Part shown: positions 12-10,940 of the stretch, one piece after another | How the letters are laid out: each line of letters begins with the position of its first letter | Position numbering within the stretch: the stretch's first letter is position 1 | Assembly: GCA_016839745.1 (NCBI GenBank) | Contig: JAEOTS010000132.1 | Coordinates: 1-10,940 of the forward strand | Reading direction: 5' to 3' | DNA: 10,940 nt | From: Promethearchaeota archaeon | GTDB lineage: Archaea > Asgardarchaeota > Lokiarchaeia > Sigyniarchaeales > SOKP01 | Translations under genes and position numbers: made by a program | Notes under the pieces: generated by a model | The model's database searches: none | What the model was told of the DNA's origin: nothing | Seen by the model: the letters and a program-made list of their open reading frames with translations, nothing else

Positions 12-1112
12 TTGGAAAAGATTTCTATTAAAAAGTTAAAGGAAGAAGTTGATCTCATTAGAACAGAATTACCAAAAGAAGAACAAAAAGTAATTACATT
101 TTCAAGGAATTTTACTCTTTCTCTCTCTAATTATTGTCAGAATCAATGTGGGTACTGCTTCTATAATCAAACTGTATCTAAAGGAAATTCAGAACAAAAT
201 GTTGTATTAATTGAAGAGGATAAAATTAATAAGTTTATCCAAGCTGCTATAGGAAATCGATGCACTGAAGCATTGATAATGTCTGGGGAAGCTCCTGATA
301 AGTTCGAAATTGTTCAGAAAGAATTGGAAAAAAGAAATTATAGTAGTTTCAATCAGTTTGTAAAATCTTTAAGCGAACGGTTGTTAAAATCAAATCTTTT
401 ACCTCATACAAATATAGGTGTGCTCTCGTTTGATCAATTAAAATATTTAAAGGATTTTAATGCCAGTATGGGATTAATGATTGAAAGTACGTGTGAATCT
501 CTTTCTAATCCAGGTGGTGTTCACGAATATTCGCTTAGTAAAACACCAGAAAACAGAATTAACCACATTGAAAACGCAGGAAAGTTAAAGATCCCCTTTA
601 CAACAGGTTTGTTATTAGGAATCGGGGAAAAATTTAAAGATCGAATTGAGGATCTTCTTTTAATTAAAGAATTACATCAAAAATATAGTCATATTCAAGA
701 AGTCATCATACAAAATTTCACAACTAAAGAGGGTATACTCTATCGTCCTAAAGAGGTTTTCACTATTAAAGAAACTCTCAAAATTGCGGGGATTGCAAAA
801 TTAATATTTGGAAATGATATTGCTATTCAAGTTCCCCCTAATCTAATCCAAAATTACGAAAAAGAAGCTTTGGAGATGGGAGTTAATGATTTTGGGGGAG
901 TGTCTCCTTTTACTTTAGATTATATTAACCCACACCATAACTGGCCAGCAATTGATATCCTAGCAAAAATATGTATTAGCAATGGATATGAACTTAGGGA
1001 GCGGCTTCCTATCTATGAGAAATATATAAATAAGGAAGAGTTTTGTTCAGTAAATATTAAAAAAACGATAGATAATATTAATCAAAATGTCAGAAGTAAA
1101 AAATATTCTTAG
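12..1112 (+). CDS. cofG: FO synthase subunit CofG (7,8-didemethyl-8-hydroxy-5-deazariboflavin synthase), radical SAM; start may lie slightly upstream of the window
   Basis: CX3CX2C motif (CQNQCGYC) after ITFSRN. CofG motifs AGKLKIPFTTGLLLGIGE, HIQEVIIQNF, IQVPPNL, DFGGVSPFTLDYINP..NWP and LRERLPIY. Overlaps cofH. The frame is open to the window edge (ATA GAA GAT before TTG at 12), so the start is uncertain. Confidence 0.93.
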   Translation: MEKISIKKLKEEVDLIRTELPKEEQKVITFSRNFTLSLSNYCQNQCGYCFYNQTVSKGNSEQNVVLIEEDKINKFIQAAIGNRCTEALIMSGEAPDKFEIVQKELEKRNYSSFNQFVKSLSERLLKSNLLPHTNIGVLSFDQLKYLKDFNASMGLMIESTCESLSNPGGVHEYSLSKTPENRINHIENAGKLKIPFTTGLLLGIGEKFKDRIEDLLLIKELHQKYSHIQEVIIQNFTTKEGILYRPKEVFTIKETLKIAGIAKLIFGNDIAIQVPPNLIQNYEKEALEMGVNDFGGVSPFTLDYINPHHNWPAIDILAKICISNGYELRERLPIYEKYINKEEFCSVNIKKTIDNINQNVRSKKYS

Positions 1113-2187
1113 AAAAGCTGAGGAATCCGTTGAAATTAGTCCAGCAGAAGCTTTAATTCTTATGAAGCTTACGGGGAAAAATTTCGCAAGACTACAACAA
1201 GTTGCCGATCAAATTTGTATTGAGAAGAAAAATAACATCGTAACCTTTGTTGTTAATCGCAATATAAATTTTACAAACATTTGTTATCAAGGATGTAAAT
1301 TCTGCTCCTTTAGTGTTTCAAATAAAAACAAAGAGAGTTTCTTAAAAACTATTGAAGATATAAGAGAGGATATCATTGAAGCTAAGAATGCAGAATGCAC
1401 AGAGGTATGCATCCAAGGAGGGATAAATCCAGAGCTAGATTTTGATTATTATGTCGAAATTCTGAAAACTGTAAAGGAAATTGATTCAAACATCCATAGT
1501 CACGCTTTTTCTCCTCAAGAAGTGTTTCATATGGCAAAATTATACGGGACATCGATTAAAAATGTCTTAAAGGAATTAAAAAAAGCCGGTTTAGATTCTA
1601 TGCCGGGAACTGCTGCTGAAATCTTAGTAGAGAATATCAGAAGAGTTATTTGTCCAAATAAAATTACAACCTCTCAATGGATTGATGTGATAAAATCAGC
1701 ACATGAATTGGGTATTCCTACAACTTCGACTATGATGTATGGGCACATTGAAGATTTACAGGACAGAATAGAACACATTGAAGTGATAAGGAATATTCAG
1801 AAGGAAACTTCAGGTTTTACCGAATTTGTTCCACTACCTTTCGTTAGTGAAAATCCACTTTTATCTAAGTTAACCGAATTCCCCCTAAAACCAAGTTATG
1901 GCATGGCAGATTTAAAACTTTTCTCAGTAGCGAGAATATTTTTCAATAATTATATTGATAATATCCAGTGTTCCTGGGTAAAGTTAGGTCCTAAATTTGC
2001 TCAAGTTTCTCTTAATTATGGAGTGAACGATTTTTCTGGGACATTAATGGAAGAAAATATATCAAAAAGTGCGGGAGCCGAATTTGGAGAATATTTAACT
2101 CCTGATGAGATGATATCTATTATCAAAGCGGCAGGTAAAAGACCTGTTCAAAGGGATACACTCTATAAATTATTAAAATTCTATTGA
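1087..2187 (+). CDS. cofH: FO synthase subunit CofH (5-amino-6-(D-ribitylamino)uracil--L-tyrosine 4-hydroxyphenyl transferase), radical SAM
   Basis: VTFVVNRNINFTNICYQGCKFCSF (CX3CX2C), TEVCIQGG, HAFSPQE, SMPGTAAEIL, TMMYGHIE, GFTEFVPLPF, NIQCSWVKLG, NDFSGTLMEENISKSAG. Overlaps cofG by 26 nt, which favours CofH over MqnC/MqnE. Confidence 0.93.
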   Translation: MSEVKNILRKAEESVEISPAEALILMKLTGKNFARLQQVADQICIEKKNNIVTFVVNRNINFTNICYQGCKFCSFSVSNKNKESFLKTIEDIREDIIEAKNAECTEVCIQGGINPELDFDYYVEILKTVKEIDSNIHSHAFSPQEVFHMAKLYGTSIKNVLKELKKAGLDSMPGTAAEILVENIRRVICPNKITTSQWIDVIKSAHELGIPTTSTMMYGHIEDLQDRIEHIEVIRNIQKETSGFTEFVPLPFVSENPLLSKLTEFPLKPSYGMADLKLFSVARIFFNNYIDNIQCSWVKLGPKFAQVSLNYGVNDFSGTLMEENISKSAGAEFGEYLTPDEMISIIKAAGKRPVQRDTLYKLLKFY

Positions 2188-2198
2188 CTTTTAGAACC

Positions 2199-4076
2199 TT
2201 AGCGATTCCCTGTATCTTGCAGAAAATTTAAAACATAATGTTGAGTAATCAAATCTGAACTGATTTTTCCTAACACCTTTCCATCTTGAACAACTGGCAT
2301 TGCTGAGATTTGATATTGTTCAAATTCCCTTACAATGTCTAAAATATTAAAATCCGGAGAGGCGGTGATTACTTGTTTTGTCATAATTTTTGTGACAATT
2401 CCATCACAAAAACCTTCGGCAGAAGCTTTTGTTACATCCCAATCTGTAACGACACCAACTAATTTTTCATCTGAAATGACAGCAATTATTCCACTATTAT
2501 TATCTATCATGGATTTAGCAGCATCCTGAATTGAACTACTTGAATCTATCATGGGTATTGAAATCATTATATCCTTAGCTGTAAGTTCACTTTCTTTGGC
2601 TTTAAGCCGTTGAAGACTTATCCTTTCAGCAGCTTGAGATGGTAAAATATCTGGGTGTGTAGTTAAAATATCAATCAATTCAATCATATTATGGCGTATT
2701 ACACCCTCACGATATACCTCACCTGCTTCTAAGCGTTTTTTAGAAAGCTTTTTGAACTTAGCTGAATTATCAGTTAACCATTTTTCAACTGCTTCTTTAT
2801 TTCCAAGAATTTCCTCGGGAAATTGAAGTTCCTCTGGTGATTTAATAATATGTTCTTGAGCTGCGAAAATTACTCCGCCTGAATTAACTAAATAATCGTT
2901 AGCTATCATTACTCCCTTTTCACGATAGACAATTTGTTCCATACGTGTTCTAGCAGCTTTTCTATTTGGATCCGGAGAATAAGTATTTGCTCCTTCAATA
3001 ATTACGTTCCAATTGCCCATATGATCAACTAACATAGATGCATTATCTGACGGTCTTACACCTAAATAATTAAATATAGGTGCCGCAGGAACAAAGCAAA
3101 ATGCATTTTCGCGGAGCAGGTCATTTGCGTTCGTAGAAAACTTTGTGGGATGTTTGAATCCTTCAGATACTATACTCTTTTCGAAATATGTTTTTGTTGC
3201 TATTTTTTTATTTTCCCAAAACCTAAACAATTCTTCAGTTGGAAGACCAGATGGATTATGAAGATAACCCTCTAAGTCACTTATACCTATTACTAAAGCT
3301 TCAGGTATTCTCTCTTTTAAAATTCTAGTTGCGTGAGCGCCTACAGCACCAAATCCTTGTATGATAACCGTTAAATCTTGGTGAGCTGGAATTTCTAAAT
3401 TTTCAAATTGTGGTAGTACTCTCATACGTGGAAATATTTCCAATAATGTTTGTAACGCTATGATTACTCCTCCGGCAGCAGCTCCGAGTTCATCAATACG
3501 ATTTCCGCCCATATCTGCTGGTTTAGAAACAGCACTATCAAGACCATTTTCGATCGCAATTAATTTCATATCAGCGTCATTAGTACCAACATCTGGTCCG
3601 GGAACATAAATTTCTTTATATCTACGAATTAATTGTGCGAATCCTCTTACAATTTCTTCATGAATATTATCAGGTAAATTTCTTTTAGCTATTATTCCTG
3701 ATTTTCCACCACCATAAGGAAGATTCGCAGCAGCGTTTTTTAAAGTCATCCCCCGTGCAAGATTATAGATATCTGAAGGTTTGATATCAGGAAGGCATCT
3801 AATTCCGCCCATCGAGGGTTGTCCCATAGATAAATTATCAACAATTAAATATCCCCCGATTTCTAACTCTGATTTTTCATCCCATACACATGCTACAAGC
3901 TGAGGACCTATTTCATCGACTGTTACGTTCAATCGCTGTAAGAGATGCACATCTAGACTACTAAATTCCAAATAACATTTACCATCTTCTTTTTTAAGAC
4001 GGGTTAATAAAGTTGCTTCAGGGAGGTGAGCCTTAAGAAAAGCTTCCATTTCAATAGGTATCATGATTGATTTCAC
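2199..4076 (-). CDS. Glu/Leu/Phe/Val-family amino-acid dehydrogenase with C-terminal CBS pair; probably not glutamate-specific
   Basis: GGIR, LARGMTLK, LPYGGGK, PGPDVGT, Rossmann QGFGAVG, IEGAN, DYLVNSGGV. Residues ~498-612 form two CBS motifs (KLVGVVTDWDV; ISAMPVVQDGKVLGKIS). Alternative starts are ATG at 4064 or 4049. Confidence 0.9.
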   Translation of the reverse strand: MKSIMIPIEMEAFLKAHLPEATLLTRLKKEDGKCYLEFSSLDVHLLQRLNVTVDEIGPQLVACVWDEKSELEIGGYLIVDNLSMGQPSMGGIRCLPDIKPSDIYNLARGMTLKNAAANLPYGGGKSGIIAKRNLPDNIHEEIVRGFAQLIRRYKEIYVPGPDVGTNDADMKLIAIENGLDSAVSKPADMGGNRIDELGAAAGGVIIALQTLLEIFPRMRVLPQFENLEIPAHQDLTVIIQGFGAVGAHATRILKERIPEALVIGISDLEGYLHNPSGLPTEELFRFWENKKIATKTYFEKSIVSEGFKHPTKFSTNANDLLRENAFCFVPAAPIFNYLGVRPSDNASMLVDHMGNWNVIIEGANTYSPDPNRKAARTRMEQIVYREKGVMIANDYLVNSGGVIFAAQEHIIKSPEELQFPEEILGNKEAVEKWLTDNSAKFKKLSKKRLEAGEVYREGVIRHNMIELIDILTTHPDILPSQAAERISLQRLKAKESELTAKDIMISIPMIDSSSSIQDAAKSMIDNNSGIIAVISDEKLVGVVTDWDVTKASAEGFCDGIVTKIMTKQVITASPDFNILDIVREFEQYQISAMPVVQDGKVLGKISSDLITQHYVLNFLQDTGNR

Positions 4077-4171: not shown

Positions 4172-6025
4172 ATGAATCCCGGTGGTAAAAAGCTTTTATT
4201 AATTGGCATTGATCAGGCAATTCCTTATTTAATTAATAGGTTTCTTGAGCAGAAAGCGATTCCGAACATCGCAAACTTATGTGAAAATGGTGTATTAGCA
4301 GAAGGATACTCCTCTGCTCCTTGTGATACACCAACTAATTGGACCACCATCGCTACAGGAGCTACAACCGCATCGCATGGAGTTACAAGTTTCTATATGC
4401 ACTTACGAGATGAACCTCTTGATTTAGGGGCAAGATTAAGATCAAGAACTCAATTATCTCGATATTGTCAAGCAGAATTTATATGGGATGTTGCGGAAAG
4501 AAGGAATTTAATACCTTTTGTAATAAATTATCCTTCTGGATGGCCAGGCAGTTTTAAAAAAGGAGTTATGAGTTTGTTTACTTGGATGGTGCCTGAATCA
4601 TATCAGAGAATGATTACACCCTCAAAATCTTATAAATTCAATAAAAAATCCAAAAACGATTCCATAAGAATAATCGACGATGGGGATAATTTAAAAATAG
4701 ATATCATTATTAAAGGCAAAAATATTCTTAACCCACTTACACAAGAGGTTTATGTTTCTAGTAATATTGGTGGCAAGATATTATTAAAAGTAAATGAAGT
4801 ACAACAAATTATTAAAGAAATGGAATGGAGTAGTTGGTTTAAGGTAAATATTAATACAACAAATGGATTTTTGCCATGCCTTTATAGAATTAAGATCATC
4901 GATCTAAATGATGAAACTATTACATTAAAACGTTCAGCTGTTTATAATACAAAAGGTTGGACAAATCCTGAGTCTTTCGGAGAGAAATTAATTAAGAATG
5001 TGTTTGAGTATGATTTTCCTCAAGAACATGACGTTGAATTTATGATTAATGAAGAGATAAGTTCTTATTTGATTTCGGCACGAAATGAAAGTTTGATGCT
5101 CGCTGAAGCGATTAAATATGCAAAACGATACTTAAATTGGGAGGTATGTTATTTTCATTATCATCCTTTAGATAGTGTTAATCATGATTCCCTTGCTTAT
5201 CTGCATAAGGAATCACCACTTTATACCGAAGAAAAAGCTAAGAAGACTTTTAACAATGTAGAAACAGCGTATAAAATAGTCGATGAGTTAGTCGGAAACC
5301 TAATAAATTCTTGTGTGGGAAAAGATACGATTGTTGTTTTTATTTCGGATCATGGTGCAGTACCAATTTGGAAGATAGTTAACATCCCGTTATATTTTAT
5401 GAAATCTGGCTTGACAAAATACAATTGGAATGAATTTGAGAAAAAATATGTTATAGATTGGAACAAGTCGACTGCCTTTCCCTATATGGAACCTCCATTT
5501 GTTTGGGTTAACCTTAAGGGAAGAGACTTACATGGAATTGTAAAGAGCTCAGAATATGAAGAAATAAGGGATTTAATAATTGAAACTCTATATAATTTAA
5601 AGGATCCTAATACTAACGAACGAATTATCGAGTTAGCTTTAAGAAAAGAAGAAGCAGGTTATCTAGGACTGAATGGAGAGAGAATTGGAGATGTTGTATA
5701 TTTTCTTAAACCTCCTTATGGAATATTCGATGGGAACTTAGGAAAGCTCGATGCAAGTAGTATGACTAAAAGCGAGTATAATAGACCAGAAGTGGATATG
5801 GCTCGATCTTTTTTCGGAGCTCATGCATATTATCTCCCCTCTACTAAATTTGGCAATTATTCAGTTTCTATACCTTTTATAATCAGTGGTCCAGGAATTA
5901 AAAAAGGTATCAAATTAGATGATATCGTTAATTTGGTTGATGTTGCTCCTACTCTTTCATATTTGCTGAATATCCCTAATCCTAAAAATTCAGAAGGTAG
6001 AATTTTATATGAAATGATGGAATAG
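4172..6025 (+). CDS. Alkaline phosphatase superfamily / nucleotide pyrophosphatase-phosphodiesterase-like protein
   Basis: Metal Asp in LLLIGIDQ, nucleophile region SSAPCDTPTNWTTIATG..HG, DSVNH, FISDHG, late His (GAHA) and C-terminal LVDVAPTL...EGR. No obvious signal peptide. Confidence 0.85.
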   Translation: MNPGGKKLLLIGIDQAIPYLINRFLEQKAIPNIANLCENGVLAEGYSSAPCDTPTNWTTIATGATTASHGVTSFYMHLRDEPLDLGARLRSRTQLSRYCQAEFIWDVAERRNLIPFVINYPSGWPGSFKKGVMSLFTWMVPESYQRMITPSKSYKFNKKSKNDSIRIIDDGDNLKIDIIIKGKNILNPLTQEVYVSSNIGGKILLKVNEVQQIIKEMEWSSWFKVNINTTNGFLPCLYRIKIIDLNDETITLKRSAVYNTKGWTNPESFGEKLIKNVFEYDFPQEHDVEFMINEEISSYLISARNESLMLAEAIKYAKRYLNWEVCYFHYHPLDSVNHDSLAYLHKESPLYTEEKAKKTFNNVETAYKIVDELVGNLINSCVGKDTIVVFISDHGAVPIWKIVNIPLYFMKSGLTKYNWNEFEKKYVIDWNKSTAFPYMEPPFVWVNLKGRDLHGIVKSSEYEEIRDLIIETLYNLKDPNTNERIIELALRKEEAGYLGLNGERIGDVVYFLKPPYGIFDGNLGKLDASSMTKSEYNRPEVDMARSFFGAHAYYLPSTKFGNYSVSIPFIISGPGIKKGIKLDDIVNLVDVAPTLSYLLNIPNPKNSEGRILYEMME

Positions 6026-6090: not shown

Positions 6091-6381
6091 ATGGTAACTC
6101 TCATAGCTACACTTCAAGTTAAACCAGGAAAAATGGAAGAGGCAATAGAAGTTCTTAAAGAAATGGCTGCTGAGGTCAAATCTTCAGAATCAGGAACTTT
6201 AGAATATATTCCTCATACTGTAAAGGGAGAAGGACTAGAGAATACAATAATTTTTTATGAGAAATATGAAAGTGAAGAAGCACTTAAATTTCATAGTAAA
6301 AATCTAAGAAAAAAAGCAGTCAATTTAGCTCCTTTGTTAGCTCTTGGAAGAGATATTAAGACATGTGTTGAAATTAAATAA
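6091..6381 (+). CDS. Antibiotic biosynthesis monooxygenase (ABM) family / putative quinol monooxygenase
   Basis: 96 aa with ABM pattern VKPGK.EE, E.GTLEY and IIFYEKYESEEALKFH; preceded by SD-like AGTGA. Confidence 0.8.
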   Translation: MVTLIATLQVKPGKMEEAIEVLKEMAAEVKSSESGTLEYIPHTVKGEGLENTIIFYEKYESEEALKFHSKNLRKKAVNLAPLLALGRDIKTCVEIK

Positions 6382-6384
6382 CAC

Positions 6385-6393
6385 TTTTTTTTT
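6385..6393 (+). terminator. Oligo-T tract, candidate archaeal intrinsic terminator
   Basis: T9 run starting 4 nt after the ABM stop, at the junction with the convergent DHPS-like gene. Confidence 0.45.
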
Positions 6394-7966
6394 ATTCATC
6401 TTGAATATACGGTTTTCCGGTAAGCAAACAGAATTCTGCTTTGTTTAATTCACGTCCCAGATAATTTATATGTTGAAAGTTTTTAGTTAAATTCAATTCA
6501 AGAACTTTTTTGCTAAGTGTCTCAGCGTTATTCCCAATTAAAGTTTTGAGAAGAATACCTTGATTAGAATAAAATAATACATAAATTTCTTTAGTGTAGT
6601 AGTTAACATAAAATTTAAAATAACCATTTTTATCGGGTATATATTCCGGAGCGTAATCTTTTACGGAAATTGCATCAATTCTATCAAATTCTGGAATAGT
6701 TTGACTAGTTTTACCTTTGGCTTTGAAGACATTAATTCCATGATTTATAGGAGGAGTTCTTTTATACTTTGCAACATAATTAAGTTTTACACTTTCTTTG
6801 AGTTCTCTTACTCCTCCCATCAATTTAGTGCTGTGTTCAACCGTAAATAAAATTCCCATGTCTAATTCAACTGCAATACTTGCTAATAATCCATTTATTC
6901 CCACTGAATCAATATCCATTAGTTCTACTACATTAGATATACCAAAAAATAAAGGCAATTTCAGATTCTTGTTTATCTCATTTGTAACTTGTTTCTTATA
7001 GAGAAAATATGCTTCTAGCGAGTTACAAATCCCAGGTGTAATGGGTGTTTCTAGTAGGGGATCAGCAATTAACTTTTTAAAACCGCTTTGTCGTAGTTCT
7101 TGAGTTAATTTAAATATATTCTTAACTCTTATTTCAGGTTCTTTCGGAAAATAAGCTTCCTTGATGTTCGTAGGCAATATAACGATAGGGATATCACGAG
7201 GGAGATTAAGGAAATCTTTGTAATTTCCAAGGTCTATACTTAAGATTAAATCAACACCCTCATCTACTGCTGCTACAATTTCGCTTTTTTCCATTGAGTC
7301 AATACTGATTAAGACATTAAAATTATTCTGGATAAGTTGAACAATTCCTTTTATCCTATCTGGATAGGGTTTGTTTGCTACGCATCCAATATCAATAACA
7401 TCTGCACCCGATTCTATATAATGATTTACTTTTCTAACGATAGCATCATTACTTTTTTCTGGGCAATTGACAATTTCAGCAATAATTGGGGGTGGAAGAT
7501 TATTCCCGATCATTATACTAGAAGTTTGTTCGTTGATGAAAAAAGTATGGAATCCCAGATTTTCTTTTGCGATTTCAATTTGTTTTTTAGCGATTTCATC
7601 ATAGACTTGCTCGCCAGAACTCTCAAATACTTTATTTGCCGGTATTTTATTTGATAATTTAACGGTATTAATATGTTTTAAAATCCAAGGAAGATCAGAT
7701 GCAAATTCAGGTCCTTTCTTTATTTCAATTGAATTTTCTTCTTCTAATTTGGTAGTATCCCATTGGATGAAACCTGGAAGTAGTATTAGATCAAAACTGT
7801 TAAGATCTATATCTTTTAGTACATTAATAACTATACTTTCAGTTAAAAAAGCAGATATTGTTATGGGCGCTTTAAGAATTTCAATTTTCTGTTTTGTAAT
7901 TGATGAAGTGATATCCTTAATTATAGGATAACTACTCTTGCCCGTTATTATTAAAATTCTCTTAAT
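6392..7966 (-). CDS. Dihydropteroate synthase-related protein (MJ0107/Orf20 type), methanopterin biosynthesis; 524 aa if started at ATT 7966
   Basis: Pterin-binding barrel motifs IIAEI, SGADVIDIG, ISIDS, IADPLL and FFGISNVVELMDIDS, plus a DUF4346-like tail HINYLGRELNKAE..GKPYIQD. Manual translation shows no stop from 7513 up to 7966, giving IKRILIITGKSSY...ISAFLT...DLILLPG...KKGPEFASDLP...IPANK, the family's N-terminal domain. Confidence 0.88.
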   Translation of the reverse strand: MKRILIITGKSSYPIIKDITSSITKQKIEILKAPITISAFLTESIVINVLKDIDLNSFDLILLPGFIQWDTTKLEEENSIEIKKGPEFASDLPWILKHINTVKLSNKIPANKVFESSGEQVYDEIAKKQIEIAKENLGFHTFFINEQTSSIMIGNNLPPPIIAEIVNCPEKSNDAIVRKVNHYIESGADVIDIGCVANKPYPDRIKGIVQLIQNNFNVLISIDSMEKSEIVAAVDEGVDLILSIDLGNYKDFLNLPRDIPIVILPTNIKEAYFPKEPEIRVKNIFKLTQELRQSGFKKLIADPLLETPITPGICNSLEAYFLYKKQVTNEINKNLKLPLFFGISNVVELMDIDSVGINGLLASIAVELDMGILFTVEHSTKLMGGVRELKESVKLNYVAKYKRTPPINHGINVFKAKGKTSQTIPEFDRIDAISVKDYAPEYIPDKNGYFKFYVNYYTKEIYVLFYSNQGILLKTLIGNNAETLSKKVLELNLTKNFQHINYLGRELNKAEFCLLTGKPYIQDE

Positions 7967-7970
7967 TTAA

Positions 7971-7977
7971 ATCACTC
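7971..7977 (-). promoter_or_regulatory. Shine-Dalgarno-like GAGTGAT upstream of the DHPS-like gene
   Basis: Minus strand reads TGAGTGATTTAAATTAAGAGA. GAGTGAT resembles the archaeal GGAGGTGAT consensus and lies 4 nt before ATT. Confidence 0.5.
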
Positions 7978-9055
7978 AATAATTATGTTTATCAAATGGA
8001 ATATAGATATCATCTAGAATTGATCCTTTAGCTTCTTTAATTTTAATATTACTAATAATGGGTTCAAATTCGCCCCCTAATAAACCGTTTGCTATAAAAG
8101 CCGCACCTTGAGCAGCATGCTTTGATATGTTACCGTATGACTTCATTAGTTTAACAGGAAACAAATCTTCTAAACAATTGCTAATAGTTTCTTTAATATA
8201 TTGTAATTCTGACGATCTACCCGCTAGTAGTATTTCAGCAATTTTATCTTTATTTGAATAAGAGGAAGAAATTGCGTGAATTGCTTTAGTCAATTCTGAT
8301 AAATAAGCATCAAAAGCCAATTTTATCTGTGCGTCTTTTTTAGCTAATAATATGATATCTTTTAAAGTAAAATCTAAATGTCCTGAAATAAAAAAAAGTC
8401 CACCACTATAAATATCCTTTTTATTAATATTTTTAATTAGGTAAGCAAGTTCTCCATCGAGGCTCCCACAGGCTCTTAAACCCATAATGTTAGAGCCCCC
8501 TATTCCATCAATAACTTGACCATTTTCAATAGCTAAAACTGATGTAAACCCATATCCAATTTCAACCATAATAAAATTAGTACTTTTTGGATTAATTTTT
8601 AACCTTTCTACTTGGTCTCTTATCCCCGTAACGGCTGTGCATAATTTATCTGCTGTTCCCATATCAATTTTATTTACTTTGCGATACCTAGGAATTGTAA
8701 GTAGATGCTTAACGCCAGGAATAATTATACCAGGAATCTTTTCTGCTTTTATCAAGCGAAGGATTTCACCTAATCCGATTAATTTATTTTTCTCCTTTGT
8801 ATCGAATTTCAACAGGGTTAGAAATATATCTTCTTCAGTTATATCTGAAACTCTTTTCAAGGGTAATCCAAATCCGCTTGGAGCTACAATTAAATCGATA
8901 TTCTCTACCGATTTTATAATGGCTAAAGCTTTACTCGGTTCTTCTATTAATTCATTTGAAGGAATAGAAGTATCTAAGATTATTTCTTTGTTTTCTAAAC
9001 CAAAAAAATCCCAAGATTTAGAGCCAGGATCTATACCAATTACCCGATACAACAA
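7976..9055 (-). CDS. DUF1464 family protein (ASKHA fold, annotated as predicted butyrate kinase-like)
   Basis: ASKHA phosphate-1 motif VIGIDPGSKSWD, APSGFGLP, IPGVKHL.TIP.YRK.NKIDMGTADK, VEIGYGF, DGIGGS, AAQGAA. TTG start. Confidence 0.88.
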   Translation of the reverse strand: MLYRVIGIDPGSKSWDFFGLENKEIILDTSIPSNELIEEPSKALAIIKSVENIDLIVAPSGFGLPLKRVSDITEEDIFLTLLKFDTKEKNKLIGLGEILRLIKAEKIPGIIIPGVKHLLTIPRYRKVNKIDMGTADKLCTAVTGIRDQVERLKINPKSTNFIMVEIGYGFTSVLAIENGQVIDGIGGSNIMGLRACGSLDGELAYLIKNINKKDIYSGGLFFISGHLDFTLKDIILLAKKDAQIKLAFDAYLSELTKAIHAISSSYSNKDKIAEILLAGRSSELQYIKETISNCLEDLFPVKLMKSYGNISKHAAQGAAFIANGLLGGEFEPIISNIKIKEAKGSILDDIYIPFDKHNY

Positions 9056-9081
9056 AAATCAAGTTCTATTTAATTTGCTAA

Positions 9082-9089
9082 TTATAAAA
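9082..9089 (-). promoter_or_regulatory. Candidate TATA box for the DUF1464-DHPS transcript (leaderless or short leader)
   Basis: Minus strand TTTTATAA centred about 30 nt upstream of the TTG start, with no SD between them. The AT-rich background limits confidence. Confidence 0.4.
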
Positions 9090-9227
9090 GTTCAATAATT
9101 CTTTTTATTTTTGTTAATTTTTAATGCTTCTTGATCGAAGGAAAAAGATGATTATTTTATTATAAAGTTTTAAAGAACTTGGATATATTCTTACTTATAC
9201 TACTGAAAATTATTATTATCATATCTA

Positions 9228-9977
9228 ATGTCCTCTAATTTTCAAATAGATTTCACATCTATAGGCTTAAAAAAAAATTATTTATATGAAATCTTAGCTA
9301 CCACATTTTCGATAGATGGTACCCTAATGGTTCCAAATACTGCTAGTATGGGTCTCAGGTTAGTGGATAAGGAATTATTTAAAATTTGGCCTTATCCAAA
9401 TACAACCACTTATAAAAACATAGAAAACAATAAATTCCTTGTATTAAATTTTATTGATGATGTATTTCTATATGCGCTAACATCTTTAAAAGGTTATAAC
9501 TTGTCTAAAAGTGATAGAGCTTTATCAGAAAAATATTATAATTACTATACTCTTGGTGTTAAAGAGGAGTATAAAGATTTTGCTAAAAGAATTACATCTG
9601 CAGATTCTATTCAACTCCCTTATTTAAATCAAGCCTGGGCTATAATAGTCTGTATTGCAACGAATATAAATCAAATTTTAAGAAAGGACGATTTTGGTGA
9701 ATTTAAGTTAATGGAAGTAAATTTAACTGTTATATCCTACGAGAAATACAGGGAATCTTTTAAATTGTTTAATAGAGCGGAAAATTTAACTTTAGAAACT
9801 ATCGTATTAGCTACTAAATTAAATGTTGCGATAGAAAAAAAAGAAAGAGCCTTAACCGAATCAATAAAGCGAAAAATTGAAGAAAATGTAAGCAATGTAA
9901 TGAGATTTGGAAAAAATGTGAGTGCTTTAAAAGCGATTGAACATGTTACAGACTACATTAAAGGATTAGAGTCCTAG
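9228..9977 (+). CDS. DUF447 family protein (flavin-binding split-barrel fold), associated with methanopterin gene clusters
   Basis: YEILATT...PNTASMG, TTTYKNI...VLNFIDD and C-terminal helical FNRAENLTLETIVLATKL; consistent gene context. Confidence 0.82.
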   Translation: MSSNFQIDFTSIGLKKNYLYEILATTFSIDGTLMVPNTASMGLRLVDKELFKIWPYPNTTTYKNIENNKFLVLNFIDDVFLYALTSLKGYNLSKSDRALSEKYYNYYTLGVKEEYKDFAKRITSADSIQLPYLNQAWAIIVCIATNINQILRKDDFGEFKLMEVNLTVISYEKYRESFKLFNRAENLTLETIVLATKLNVAIEKKERALTESIKRKIEENVSNVMRFGKNVSALKAIEHVTDYIKGLES

Positions 9978-10369
9978 TTTTTATTTCTTATTTTTTCAAT
10001 GAACATCAAAGGGTATTTAAGTTCTTCAATCCACTCTACTTTTGCAGTTATTTCAACCGAGTTAAACTCAAGAACGACTGTCGCGGCTATTGATATGCCA
10101 GATAACTCATCATACTCAAATTCGGTGGTTTTATTACCCTGAATTTTATCCCGATTGATATTAATCTTAACGGATTTCACATATGGTTGGCAGGAGATTG
10201 ATGCTTCAATACCTTTTTCAATAGACTCTATAATTATAGGGTTCGATGAAATTGGCAAGCCACATAAAATATGATAAAGAGCTCCTAATTTTATGCCTAT
10301 TTCGAAGCATGCTCTTTCTCTATCGTTTATATCATAAGAAAAATACGCGTTTTCTTTGCCATTTGACAT
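9974..10369 (-). CDS. mptD: Archaeal dihydroneopterin aldolase
   Basis: RERACFEIGIKLGALYH, QPYV, Y.ELSG, LKYPLMFI; 131 aa; TAATG stop/start overlap with the RFAP synthase gene. Confidence 0.9.
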   Translation of the reverse strand: MSNGKENAYFSYDINDRERACFEIGIKLGALYHILCGLPISSNPIIIESIEKGIEASISCQPYVKSVKININRDKIQGNKTTEFEYDELSGISIAATVVLEFNSVEITAKVEWIEELKYPLMFIEKIRNKN

Positions 10370-10940
10370 TAATTCTCATCAACAAATTCAATTTTTGCTC
10401 CATTATTATTGGGTTTGCATAAGTAGATGTGTCCACCTATACTATTAAGACTGATCTGAACATCTTTTAAAAGTTTGTTTGCTTCCTCATCAGATTCTAC
10501 AATCCCAAATACACTAGGTCCGAATGAAGACATTCCAAAAGCTTTTACTCCATATTCTTCAAAAAAAGTGAGTGTCTTTTTTACGATTTCATGTTGTAAA
10601 GAGATTTCGATTTTTTTGAATCCTATGTTCTGTATTCTTTTTAAACCTTCACCAAAACATTCTAAATCTTTTTTAATGATTCCTGGTACAATTTTCATTA
10701 AAATTTGGTGCGAAACTTCATTGACTTCTTCTTTTGGAATTGGAGCATGACTTTGAAAGATGCTTACCTCTTCATCACCATAAGCACCCTTCTTTACATT
10801 AGGTATAACTAACACAAATCTCCAATGCTCTGGAACGGGATATCTTAAGATTGTAAGCGCAGGATTAGCTTCTTTTGATGCTGAGGAAGGTAGAAATGTT
10901 TCTTTCTCTTTTCCTTTACCAAATTCATGTCCCGCATCAA
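10369..10940 (-). CDS. mptG: Beta-ribofuranosylaminobenzene 5'-phosphate (beta-RFAP) synthase, GHMP superfamily; 5' end outside the window
   Basis: The frame stays open past the ORF-track start (10815) to the edge: DAGH....FLPSSAS...RYPVPEHWRFVLVIP. Also EE..IFQ, IQNIGFKKIE, GMSSFGPSVFG and PNNNGA. Confidence 0.9.
   Translation of the reverse strand, partial: DAGHEFGKGKEKETFLPSSASKEANPALTILRYPVPEHWRFVLVIPNVKKGAYGDEEVSIFQSHAPIPKEEVNEVSHQILMKIVPGIIKKDLECFGEGLKRIQNIGFKKIEISLQHEIVKKTLTFFEEYGVKAFGMSSFGPSVFGIVESDEEANKLLKDVQISLNSIGGHIYLCKPNNNGAKIEFVDEN

Follow-up and report, generated by a model that had tools for sequence, protein, structure and literature searches.

A predicted neutral amino-acid dehydrogenase fused to a CBS pair in an Asgard archaeon

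The dehydrogenase gene, its domains and its pocket residues

We analysed a 10,940-nucleotide stretch of DNA from a Promethearchaeota archaeon (assembly GCA_016839745.1, contig JAEOTS010000132.1; hereafter the window, whose positions are used throughout), with attention to a reverse-strand gene that encodes a dehydrogenase fused to a C-terminal CBS pair. An initial annotation, made from the sequence alone, had taken in the dehydrogenase core without the CBS extension, and had described it as a glutamate dehydrogenase (GDH)-family enzyme with a pocket like that of a methionine dehydrogenase. Its residue numbering, which counts from the GTG at 4076 and is retained here, is correct, but its choice of start is not. 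Translation from this GTG yields 625 amino acids (aa), and the database homologues begin four codons downstream, at the ATG at 4064, which yields 621 aa. The features of the gene, all on the reverse strand, are as follows.

2199 to 4076, reverse strand: coding sequence of the dehydrogenase-CBS fusion, stop codon at 2199-2201; PF02812, PF00208 and PF00571 score over their Pfam cut-offs
3555 to 3827, reverse strand: substrate-binding/dimerisation domain (ELFV_dehydrog_N, Pfam; residues 84-174), containing M89, K113, K125, G160 and D162
2847 to 3392, reverse strand: NAD(P)-binding domain (ELFV_dehydrog, Pfam; residues 229-410), with the GFGAVG Rossmann motif at 3339-3356 and NSGGVIFA
2232 to 2588, reverse strand: C-terminal CBS pair (Bateman module; approximately residues 497-615), placed by Pfam, the AlphaFold2 model and the match to MJ0100
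3810 to 3812, reverse strand: M89, in PSMGGIR, at the position of the γ-carboxylate-binding Lys of GDH (KGGIR becomes SMGGIR)
3738 to 3740, reverse strand: K113, in MTLK
3702 to 3704, reverse strand: K125, in GGGK
3597 to 3599, reverse strand: G160, at the position of the GDH pocket Ala (PAPD becomes PGPD), invariant in the family
3591 to 3593, reverse strand: D162, in PGPD
3519 to 3533, reverse strand: AVSKP (residues 182-186), which stands where GDH has VTGKP; family members carry Val or Leu at the Thr position
2862 to 2864, reverse strand: A405, at the position of the γ-carboxylate-binding Ser of GDH (GGVxxS becomes GGVIFA), invariant

Both dehydrogenase domains were recognised by Pfam (PF02812, 69.3 bits vs a cut-off of 25.3; PF00208, 64.3 vs 23.4), as was PF00571 (CBS), which matched in 2 stretches near the C-terminus (71.8 bits). 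The open reading frame exceeds that of a normal GDH by ~220 residues, which comprise long helices followed by the CBS pair. In an AlphaFold2 model built on an alignment of 44 sequences (predicted local distance difference test score, pLDDT, 91.4; predicted template modelling score, pTM, 0.79), these helices, model residues 423-491, connect the catalytic part with the CBS pair, and the strands and helices of the pair extend over residues 505-620 with a pLDDT of ~90. The G+C content of the gene is 35.7%, compared to 31.1% in the rest of the window.

Translation of 2199-4076 placed residues 89, 113, 125, 160, 162 and 405 at exactly the coordinates, and in exactly the motif contexts, that the initial annotation had claimed. 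Likewise, the catalytic residues K113, K125 and D162 and the Rossmann motif are intact, and they are invariant among 44 homologues with 42-89% identity to the query. G160, A405 and the Rossmann glycines are equally invariant in these sequences, and M89 is conserved in at least 90% of them, with Leu in the remainder, which are the most distant members. Conservation of the M/G/A combination, which had been proposed as a check, was thus borne out.

HMMER alignment to solved GDHs placed SMGGIR under [MT]KGGIR, VPGPDVGT under VPAPDMGT and NSGGVIFAAQE under NAGGVTVSYFE, in agreement with the earlier claim that M89, G160 and A405 replace the GDH Lys, Ala and Ser. The same three correspondences were obtained when the protein was aligned to the canonical GDH of its own genome. 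AVSKP, which the initial annotation had set in the place of the TGK motif, aligned with GDH VTGKP, with Val at the Thr position. Judged from its conservation among the 44 homologues, the pocket pattern is a fixed trait of the family, and chance substitution is excluded.

A deep branch of the superfamily distinct from glutamate dehydrogenases

The protein displays the features of the Glu/Leu/Phe/Val (ELFV) dehydrogenase superfamily, namely both domains, the catalytic Lys/Lys/Asp set and a glycine-rich dinucleotide motif. Since the catalytic set and cofactor motif are intact and invariant, it should be an active NAD(P)-dependent L-amino-acid dehydrogenase. Going by superfamily chemistry and the conserved residues, K113 would hold the α-carboxylate, K125 and D162 would carry out the imine chemistry, and hydride would pass to the nicotinamide at GFGAVG, in a reversible conversion of a neutral amino acid to the corresponding 2-oxo acid. 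The side-chain pocket is predicted to comprise M89, G90, G160, V183, V402 and A405, and would be uncharged and wider than that of GDH.

Several observations separate the protein from GDH. In E. coli GDH, K92 and S380 contact the γ-carboxylate of the substrate (PMC8784811). The Lys (KGGxR) and Ser (GGVxxS) that bind this group in GDHs are M89 and A405 here, and both positions are apolar throughout the family, in keeping with the initial view that the pocket is unsuited to glutamate. Scores against the NCBIfam GDH equivalog models were far below their cut-offs (GdhA_Arch, 86.4 vs 750 bits; GdhB_Halo, 91.2 vs 620; PRK09414, 39.5 vs 536), and the tryptophan dehydrogenase ScyB model (NF035922) likewise reached 68.9 bits vs a cut-off of 600. 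A maximum-likelihood tree, another of the proposed checks, which contained no named Leu, Val or Phe dehydrogenases, resolved the family as a single clade (support 100/100) whose stem measures 1.81 changes per column. The label of a GDH-family enzyme therefore held insofar as the protein belongs to the superfamily, but it is not simply a mutated GDH, since it lies on a separate deep branch of its own.

A search of 1.84 billion cluster representatives returned only about six full-length clusters that belong to the family. Past these, scores dropped from at least 480 bits to ~120 bits, at which level were enzymes of 360-410 aa without a CBS pair. Among the nearest outgroup enzymes, many likewise have I or L in place of the Lys, G in place of the Ala and A or C in place of the Ser, so that an apolar pocket as such is shared beyond this family.

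The genome itself yielded four matches to the family: a canonical GDH of 409 aa (with KGGIR, PAPD, TGKP and GGVCVS), a divergent member of 400 aa, the query and a copy 93% identical to it. That the genome also encodes a true GDH speaks for a different function of the CBS-fused enzyme. The 400-aa enzyme, a third ELFV-type dehydrogenase (L002:1450-2652, reverse strand, contig C23 of the same genome), has GIPAGGVR, YPGPDMG and NAGEVLAV, lacks the glutamate-binding residues, adjoins an APC-type amino-acid permease and forms a long unplaced branch of the tree. The 93%-identical copy (L004, contig C104:1-2729) is cut by the contig end and is adjoined by a second cofH; it is probably a co-assembled strain variant, which fits the bin contamination estimate of 5.8%.

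With the AlphaFold2 model as query, the nearest folds were hexameric GDHs (Z 35.8, root-mean-square deviation 2.3 Å, 373 residues, 25% identity), and phenylalanine dehydrogenase (PheDH) of Rhodococcus (Z 33.4), leucine dehydrogenase (LeuDH; Z 32.8) and tryptophan dehydrogenase (TrpDH; Z 31.9) were nearly as near. The hexameric GDHs of ~415 aa (Thermotoga maritima, 1B26; Thermococcus, 1BVU; Arabidopsis GDH2, 8OWM) share with the query the two-domain fold, the Lys/Lys/Asp set and GFGxVG. In contrast to them, the query has Met for Lys, Ala for Ser, Gly for the pocket Ala and Val for Thr, and adds an N-terminal segment, a ~60-residue elaboration of the NAD domain, the long linker helices and the C-terminal CBS pair.

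PheDH, LeuDH and TrpDH (1BW9/1C1D, 1LEH/3VPX and 5B37) share an apolar residue at the Lys-89 position. However, at ~350-370 aa they are without a CBS pair, and the sequence match to them lies mainly in the N-terminal domain (E 1e-11 to 6e-16). In Leu, Val and Phe dehydrogenases, whose scaffold is octameric or dimeric, Leu occupies the Lys-89 position and either Ala or Gly position 163, with Val/Leu together with Val in GGVxxV. The query pocket is apolar (M/L, G, V and A) and stands on a GDH-like scaffold with a 480-aa catalytic part.

That the protein is nevertheless a true GDH, with the γ-carboxylate bound in a different manner and with CBS control by energy charge, agrees with its database names and with fold and sequence being marginally nearest the hexameric GDHs. 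We consider it extremely improbable, given that both γ-carboxylate ligands are apolar in every family member, that scores lie so far under the GDH equivalog cut-offs, and that a canonical GDH is encoded in the same genome. Taken together, these findings indicate that the protein is very probably not a GDH but a dehydrogenase of neutral substrates. The GDH label anticipated by the initial annotation is in use, as databases and several source annotations name the homologues glutamate dehydrogenase. The ESM Atlas returned solely clusters of this family, three in number and mostly from Chloroflexota, of which two automatically bear that name.

The CBS pair, the bacterial gene row and the choice of substrate

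The best single solved match of the last 131 residues was the CBS pair of MJ0100 (3KPB/3KPC), aligned end to end at 57 bits. The next solved CBS pairs scored 40-48 bits, and one multi-CBS protein scored higher only through several summed weak stretches. The segments KLVG..T.WD..KA and IMT..VITA are common to MJ0100 and the query. The query pair, however, sits on a different catalytic domain, and the likeness is one of overall similarity and not of ligand contacts. MJ0100 serves archaeal homocysteine synthesis as aspartate-semialdehyde sulfurtransferase, regulated through a CBS pair that senses S-adenosylmethionine (SAM) and methylthioadenosine (MTA) (PMC13381585, PMC4045070). The sequence likeness is thus a lead towards sulfur amino-acid metabolism and not proof. 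The fused pair probably couples activity to an adenosyl ligand, for which SAM or MTA would be the best guess from the likeness to MJ0100.

Further information on function came from bacterial relatives of the gene. In 20 of 31 bacterial loci, from Chloroflexota, Desulfobacterales and bacterium UASB270, an orphan protein of 420 aa with no match in Pfam or NCBIfam is encoded upstream on the same strand, separated from the dehydrogenase by 7-194 bp in 16 loci and by 0.5-2.1 kb in four. A panB gene precedes the orphan in 19 loci, and its product passes the panB equivalog (275.9 bits vs a cut-off of 207.55). This bacterial context is more telling than the Asgard one, as it recurs across phyla. The contigs of the most distant members (P0123, P0125, P0126 and P0127) were too short or uninformative with regard to gene context.

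Individual loci carry additions to the row. Two Anaerolineales genomes encode an aldehyde dehydrogenase (PF00171, 427 bits) directly after the dehydrogenase on the same strand (L080:8934-10454 and L085:5683-7206), and the row is thereby extended to panB, barrel, dehydrogenase and aldehyde dehydrogenase. In the UASB270 locus, coaE and a Mur-ligase-family gene follow the dehydrogenase, and the interval from panB to the orphan contains the Acido-Lenti-1 RNA motif three times (L055:4619-5442; 45-56 bits vs a gathering score of 37); a 276-aa open reading frame called over this stretch is probably spurious.

A model of the orphan (pLDDT 85.9) shows a TIM barrel preceded by a helical domain at the N-terminus. 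Foldseek returned no match at E ≤0.001, and VIA-align only generic barrels (Z ~12). The barrel is 60-65% identical between archaea and bacteria. The homologue in the genome of the window is 65% identical and 428 aa long (L091:7436-8722, forward strand). The next gene, 20 bp further on, encodes a dihydrodipicolinate synthase (DHDPS)-family aldolase fused to formaldehyde-activating enzyme (Fae), 496 aa in all (L091:8743-10233, forward strand; both genes together, C184:11435-14232). The barrel was present in 27 of 32 Asgard genomes with the dehydrogenase vs 75 of 169 without it, and in 6 of 9 Anaerolineae genomes with the dehydrogenase vs 33 of 142 without it; these genomes are related and hence not independent, such that p-values overstate the association. 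The dehydrogenase would probably feed or drain a 2-oxoacid module composed of this barrel and a one-carbon (C1)/2-oxoacid aldol enzyme, the latter being PanB in bacteria and the DapA-like aldolase fused to Fae in Asgard archaea.

We asked what the panB of the row contributes in five dehydrogenase-carrying bacterial genomes. In four of the five it lies beside the barrel. A panC gene was found in one of the five, together with a different panB and panE, and was not found in the other four, while an archaeal phosphopantothenate synthetase (PPS) was found in none of the five. Two panB copies are frequent within a genome, the one next to panC and the other next to the barrel. Barrel-linked PanBs score lower with Pfam (~327-363 bits vs ~376-411 for panC-linked copies), and a quick FastTree analysis placed them in at least two groups mixed with panC-linked copies. 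The barrel-adjacent panB is thus mostly not for pantothenate.

Among the candidate roles considered, that of the dehydrogenase as a source of 2-oxoisovalerate for pantothenate was weakened by the finding of panC in only one of the five genomes and of PPS in none, and by the occurrence of ketol-acid reductoisomerase in 4 of the 5 genomes, since with this enzyme a valine dehydrogenase is not needed to obtain 2-oxoisovalerate. Replacement of PanC by the barrel was rejected, because panC (43 genomes) and the barrel (39 genomes) are distributed independently among 151 Anaerolineae (both in 11, expected 11.1). The idea that barrel-linked PanBs are a single neofunctionalised paralogue was partly borne out, in that their Pfam scores are lower, yet they do not form a single clade.

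These results bear on the reading that the enzyme is a broad or branched-chain aliphatic dehydrogenase (of the Val/Leu/Ile, 2-aminobutyrate or norvaline type), the 2-oxo acid being substrate or product of the adjoining PanB, either by way of valine, 2-oxoisovalerate and ketopantoate or by C1-branching of 2-oxo acids. The row of panB, barrel and dehydrogenase in 19 of the 31 bacterial loci favours it, as do the run of one locus into coaE and the Leu found at position 89 of distant members, as in leucine dehydrogenases; that barrel-linked PanBs are not one specialised clade suggests ordinary PanB chemistry. On the other hand, G160 and A405 enlarge the pocket beyond the pattern of Leu and Val dehydrogenases, most row genomes lack a visible panC or archaeal PPS, so that pantoate for coenzyme A would not be the purpose, and 4 of the 5 genomes presumably make their own 2-oxoisovalerate with ketol-acid reductoisomerase. 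Moreover, the Asgard barrel pairs with the aldolase-Fae fusion and not with panB. We therefore regard an aliphatic substrate of this type as unlikely, albeit worth serious consideration.

The aldolase-Fae fusion raises a further alternative, in which the enzyme would act, in the aminating or the deaminating direction, on a hydroxylated or unsaturated C4 oxo acid produced by the barrel/aldolase module, such as 4-hydroxy-2-oxobutanoate/homoserine, and would thereby connect the homoserine family with pyruvate plus C1 units bound to a carrier. Partnership of the barrel with this fusion implies formaldehyde as the aldehyde in a pyruvate aldol reaction, PanB would perform an analogous C1 transfer in bacteria, and the linkage and co-occurrence of the barrel agree with both. 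However, the pocket (M, G, V, V and A) offers no polar group for a 4-hydroxyl, a direct homoserine dehydrogenase would leave the barrel without a role, and in the papers found 4-hydroxy-2-oxobutanoate appears in engineered C1-assimilation contexts. This alternative appears decidedly unlikely.

We tentatively favour, as a leading guess still short of an even chance, a methionine-like substrate, based on three independent strands, each of them weak: the pocket analogy, the MJ0100-like CBS pair and the C1/2-oxoacid partner module. The likeliest physiological pair would be L-methionine with 2-oxo-4-methylthiobutanoate, or else homocysteine or a similar straight-chain analogue, because the pocket matches in kind that of K89L/A163G/S380A, a mutant of Clostridium symbiosum GDH that reportedly acts as a methionine/norleucine dehydrogenase. 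This precedent, cited in the initial annotation, holds in kind, as a triple mutant of Halobacterium salinarum GDH changed at the equivalent positions accepts Met, norleucine and norvaline (PMC5708825). The engineered enzymes and the query have like residues at the three pocket positions (M or L, G and A) on a GDH-like scaffold; the query differs from them in being natural, in its deep separate branch, in the fourth change, Thr to Val, and in its regulatory domain, and its function is predicted.

The domains, the residues with their conservation, the clade and the genomic linkage are observations, and the substrate, the CBS ligand, the flux direction and the pathway are inferred. The enzyme could be conceived as a SAM/MTA-gated entry or exit step of an undescribed route between methionine (or homocysteine) and pyruvate plus a carrier-bound one-carbon unit, a proposal that we offer as speculation with little probability attached. 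In such a route, methionine would be deaminated to 2-oxo-4-methylthiobutanoate, the orphan TIM barrel would swap the C4 thiol for a hydroxyl by elimination and hydration, and the resulting 4-hydroxy-2-oxobutanoate would be converted to pyruvate and a methylene-carrier by PanB (with folate, bacteria) or aldolase-Fae (with methanopterin, Asgard archaea). Run in reverse, it could constitute a new methionine synthesis.

A number of observations weigh against the methionine-like reading. The pocket residues were placed by sequence alignment and not by coordinate superposition, and a pocket of I/L/M, G and A/C, being common in the relatives of 360-410 aa, marks a hydrophobic substrate at the level of sequence and not methionine as such. 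The margin of MJ0100 over other CBS pairs is modest (~10 bits). The textbook substrate of PanB, 2-oxoisovalerate, would point to valine. No riboswitch or T-box was detected at Rfam gathering scores in 19 bacterial loci, and no SAM riboswitch among them. The barrel is far commoner than the dehydrogenase (102 vs 32 of 201 Asgard genomes; 39 vs 9 of 151 Anaerolineae), and because it is much commoner yet mostly accompanies the dehydrogenase where the latter occurs, the dehydrogenase appears to be at most an optional accessory to a barrel-centred module. Finally, the gene stands alone in the window, as it diverges from the gene upstream and converges on cofH. Pyridoxal phosphate-dependent enzymes of Cys/Met metabolism showed no distribution across the Asgard family that matches that of the dehydrogenase.

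Asgard gene context, distribution and significance

The neighbour with which the gene converges is the following.

1087 to 2187, forward strand: cofH (FO synthase subunit), tail to tail with the dehydrogenase gene at a gap of 11 bp; a functional link is not inferred

The window is a cofactor region that comprises cofG, cofH, a dihydropteroate synthase (DHPS)-like gene (PterinBD-DUF4346), DUF1464, DUF447, an archaeal dihydroneopterin aldolase and a β-RFAP synthase, with the F420 and methanopterin biosynthesis genes at 1-2187 and 6392-10938 and the β-RFAP synthase cut by the window end. The set of DHPS-like, DUF1464, DUF447, dihydroneopterin aldolase and β-RFAP synthase genes points to methanopterin synthesis. 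In ~43-46 of 50 Asgard loci the order is DUF1464, DHPS-like, (ABM), (phosphodiesterase) and dehydrogenase, and 46 have cofH-cofG, with cofH, cofG, RibD_C, an amidohydrolase and MptA on the opposite strand. This synteny may reflect only descent, because the genera that supplied these loci are few and related.

Between the DHPS-like gene and the dehydrogenase, the window encodes a 617-aa protein of the type I phosphodiesterase/sulfatase superfamily (4172-6025, forward strand) and a 96-aa ABM monooxygenase-like protein (6091-6381, forward strand), whose clusters occur in 11 and 24 of the 50 Asgard loci, respectively. The DHPS-like gene has, at 7514-7790 on the reverse strand, a conserved N-terminal block of ~92 residues that is 57% identical to the N-terminus of a 466-aa homologue (L027). 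The block lies upstream of the first ATG, GTG or TTG (7513) in an open frame, which suggests a non-canonical start codon. In three Asgard loci (L011, L015 and L020) the dehydrogenase lies outside the cofactor region, after same-strand genes for a GlcD-like FAD oxidase and a GlcF/HdrB-like iron-sulfur protein, an arrangement that hints at a trio of 2-hydroxy acid, 2-oxo acid and amino acid.

The chief alternative of the initial annotation was an aromatic (Phe/Tyr) amino-acid dehydrogenase, possibly tied to CofH through its use of tyrosine. Gly at position 160 is typical of phenylalanine dehydrogenases, which also counts against a methionine-like substrate, the Rhodococcus PheDH fold is close to that of the model, and cofH is adjacent in the window. 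However, the link to tyrosine and CofH was rejected, given that the two genes are convergent, that only four related genera of a single Asgard family show this gene order, and that cofGH was not near the dehydrogenase in any of the 31 bacterial loci. Together with the low score of the tryptophan dehydrogenase model, these findings make an aromatic substrate highly unlikely.

Homologues at 70-90% identity come from Asgard (Promethearchaeota) metagenome bins, and those at 56-65% from Chloroflexota (Anaerolineales), Desulfobacterales and bacterium UASB270. In an even sample of the phylum of the window, the gene was present in 32 of 201 genomes, all of one family and four genera (16/16, 10/10, 3/4 and 2/2 by genus); neither the four other genera sampled from that family nor the 160 sampled genomes of the other 26 families yielded it. 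Three Asgard sequences nest among bacterial ones in the tree, with Desulfobacterales next, then UASB270 and then Chloroflexota (support 94-95). Transfer from bacteria to one Asgard lineage is the simplest reading.

The fold and chemistry of the protein are known. In contrast, neither a natural family with such a pocket, nor the CBS fusion, nor the recurrent linkage to an orphan enzyme was described in anything we found; our literature search yielded no paper on an ELFV dehydrogenase with a CBS pair, nor on this protein in Asgard archaea. To our knowledge, the ELFV superfamily has no natural member described as a dehydrogenase of methionine (or of another straight-chain neutral amino acid), and such enzymes are sought for the production of non-canonical amino acids and keto acids. 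The narrow Asgard distribution and the nesting within bacterial sequences make the gene a clear candidate for bacterium-to-Asgard transfer. If the present assignment is true, a gene called GDH is wrongly named, which may bear on how nitrogen and amino-acid metabolism is reconstructed for Asgard archaea and for the Chloroflexota and Desulfobacterales of sediments. The dehydrogenase would then also provide a handle on the orphan TIM barrel and its C1/2-oxoacid partners, which together with it may form an undescribed pathway.

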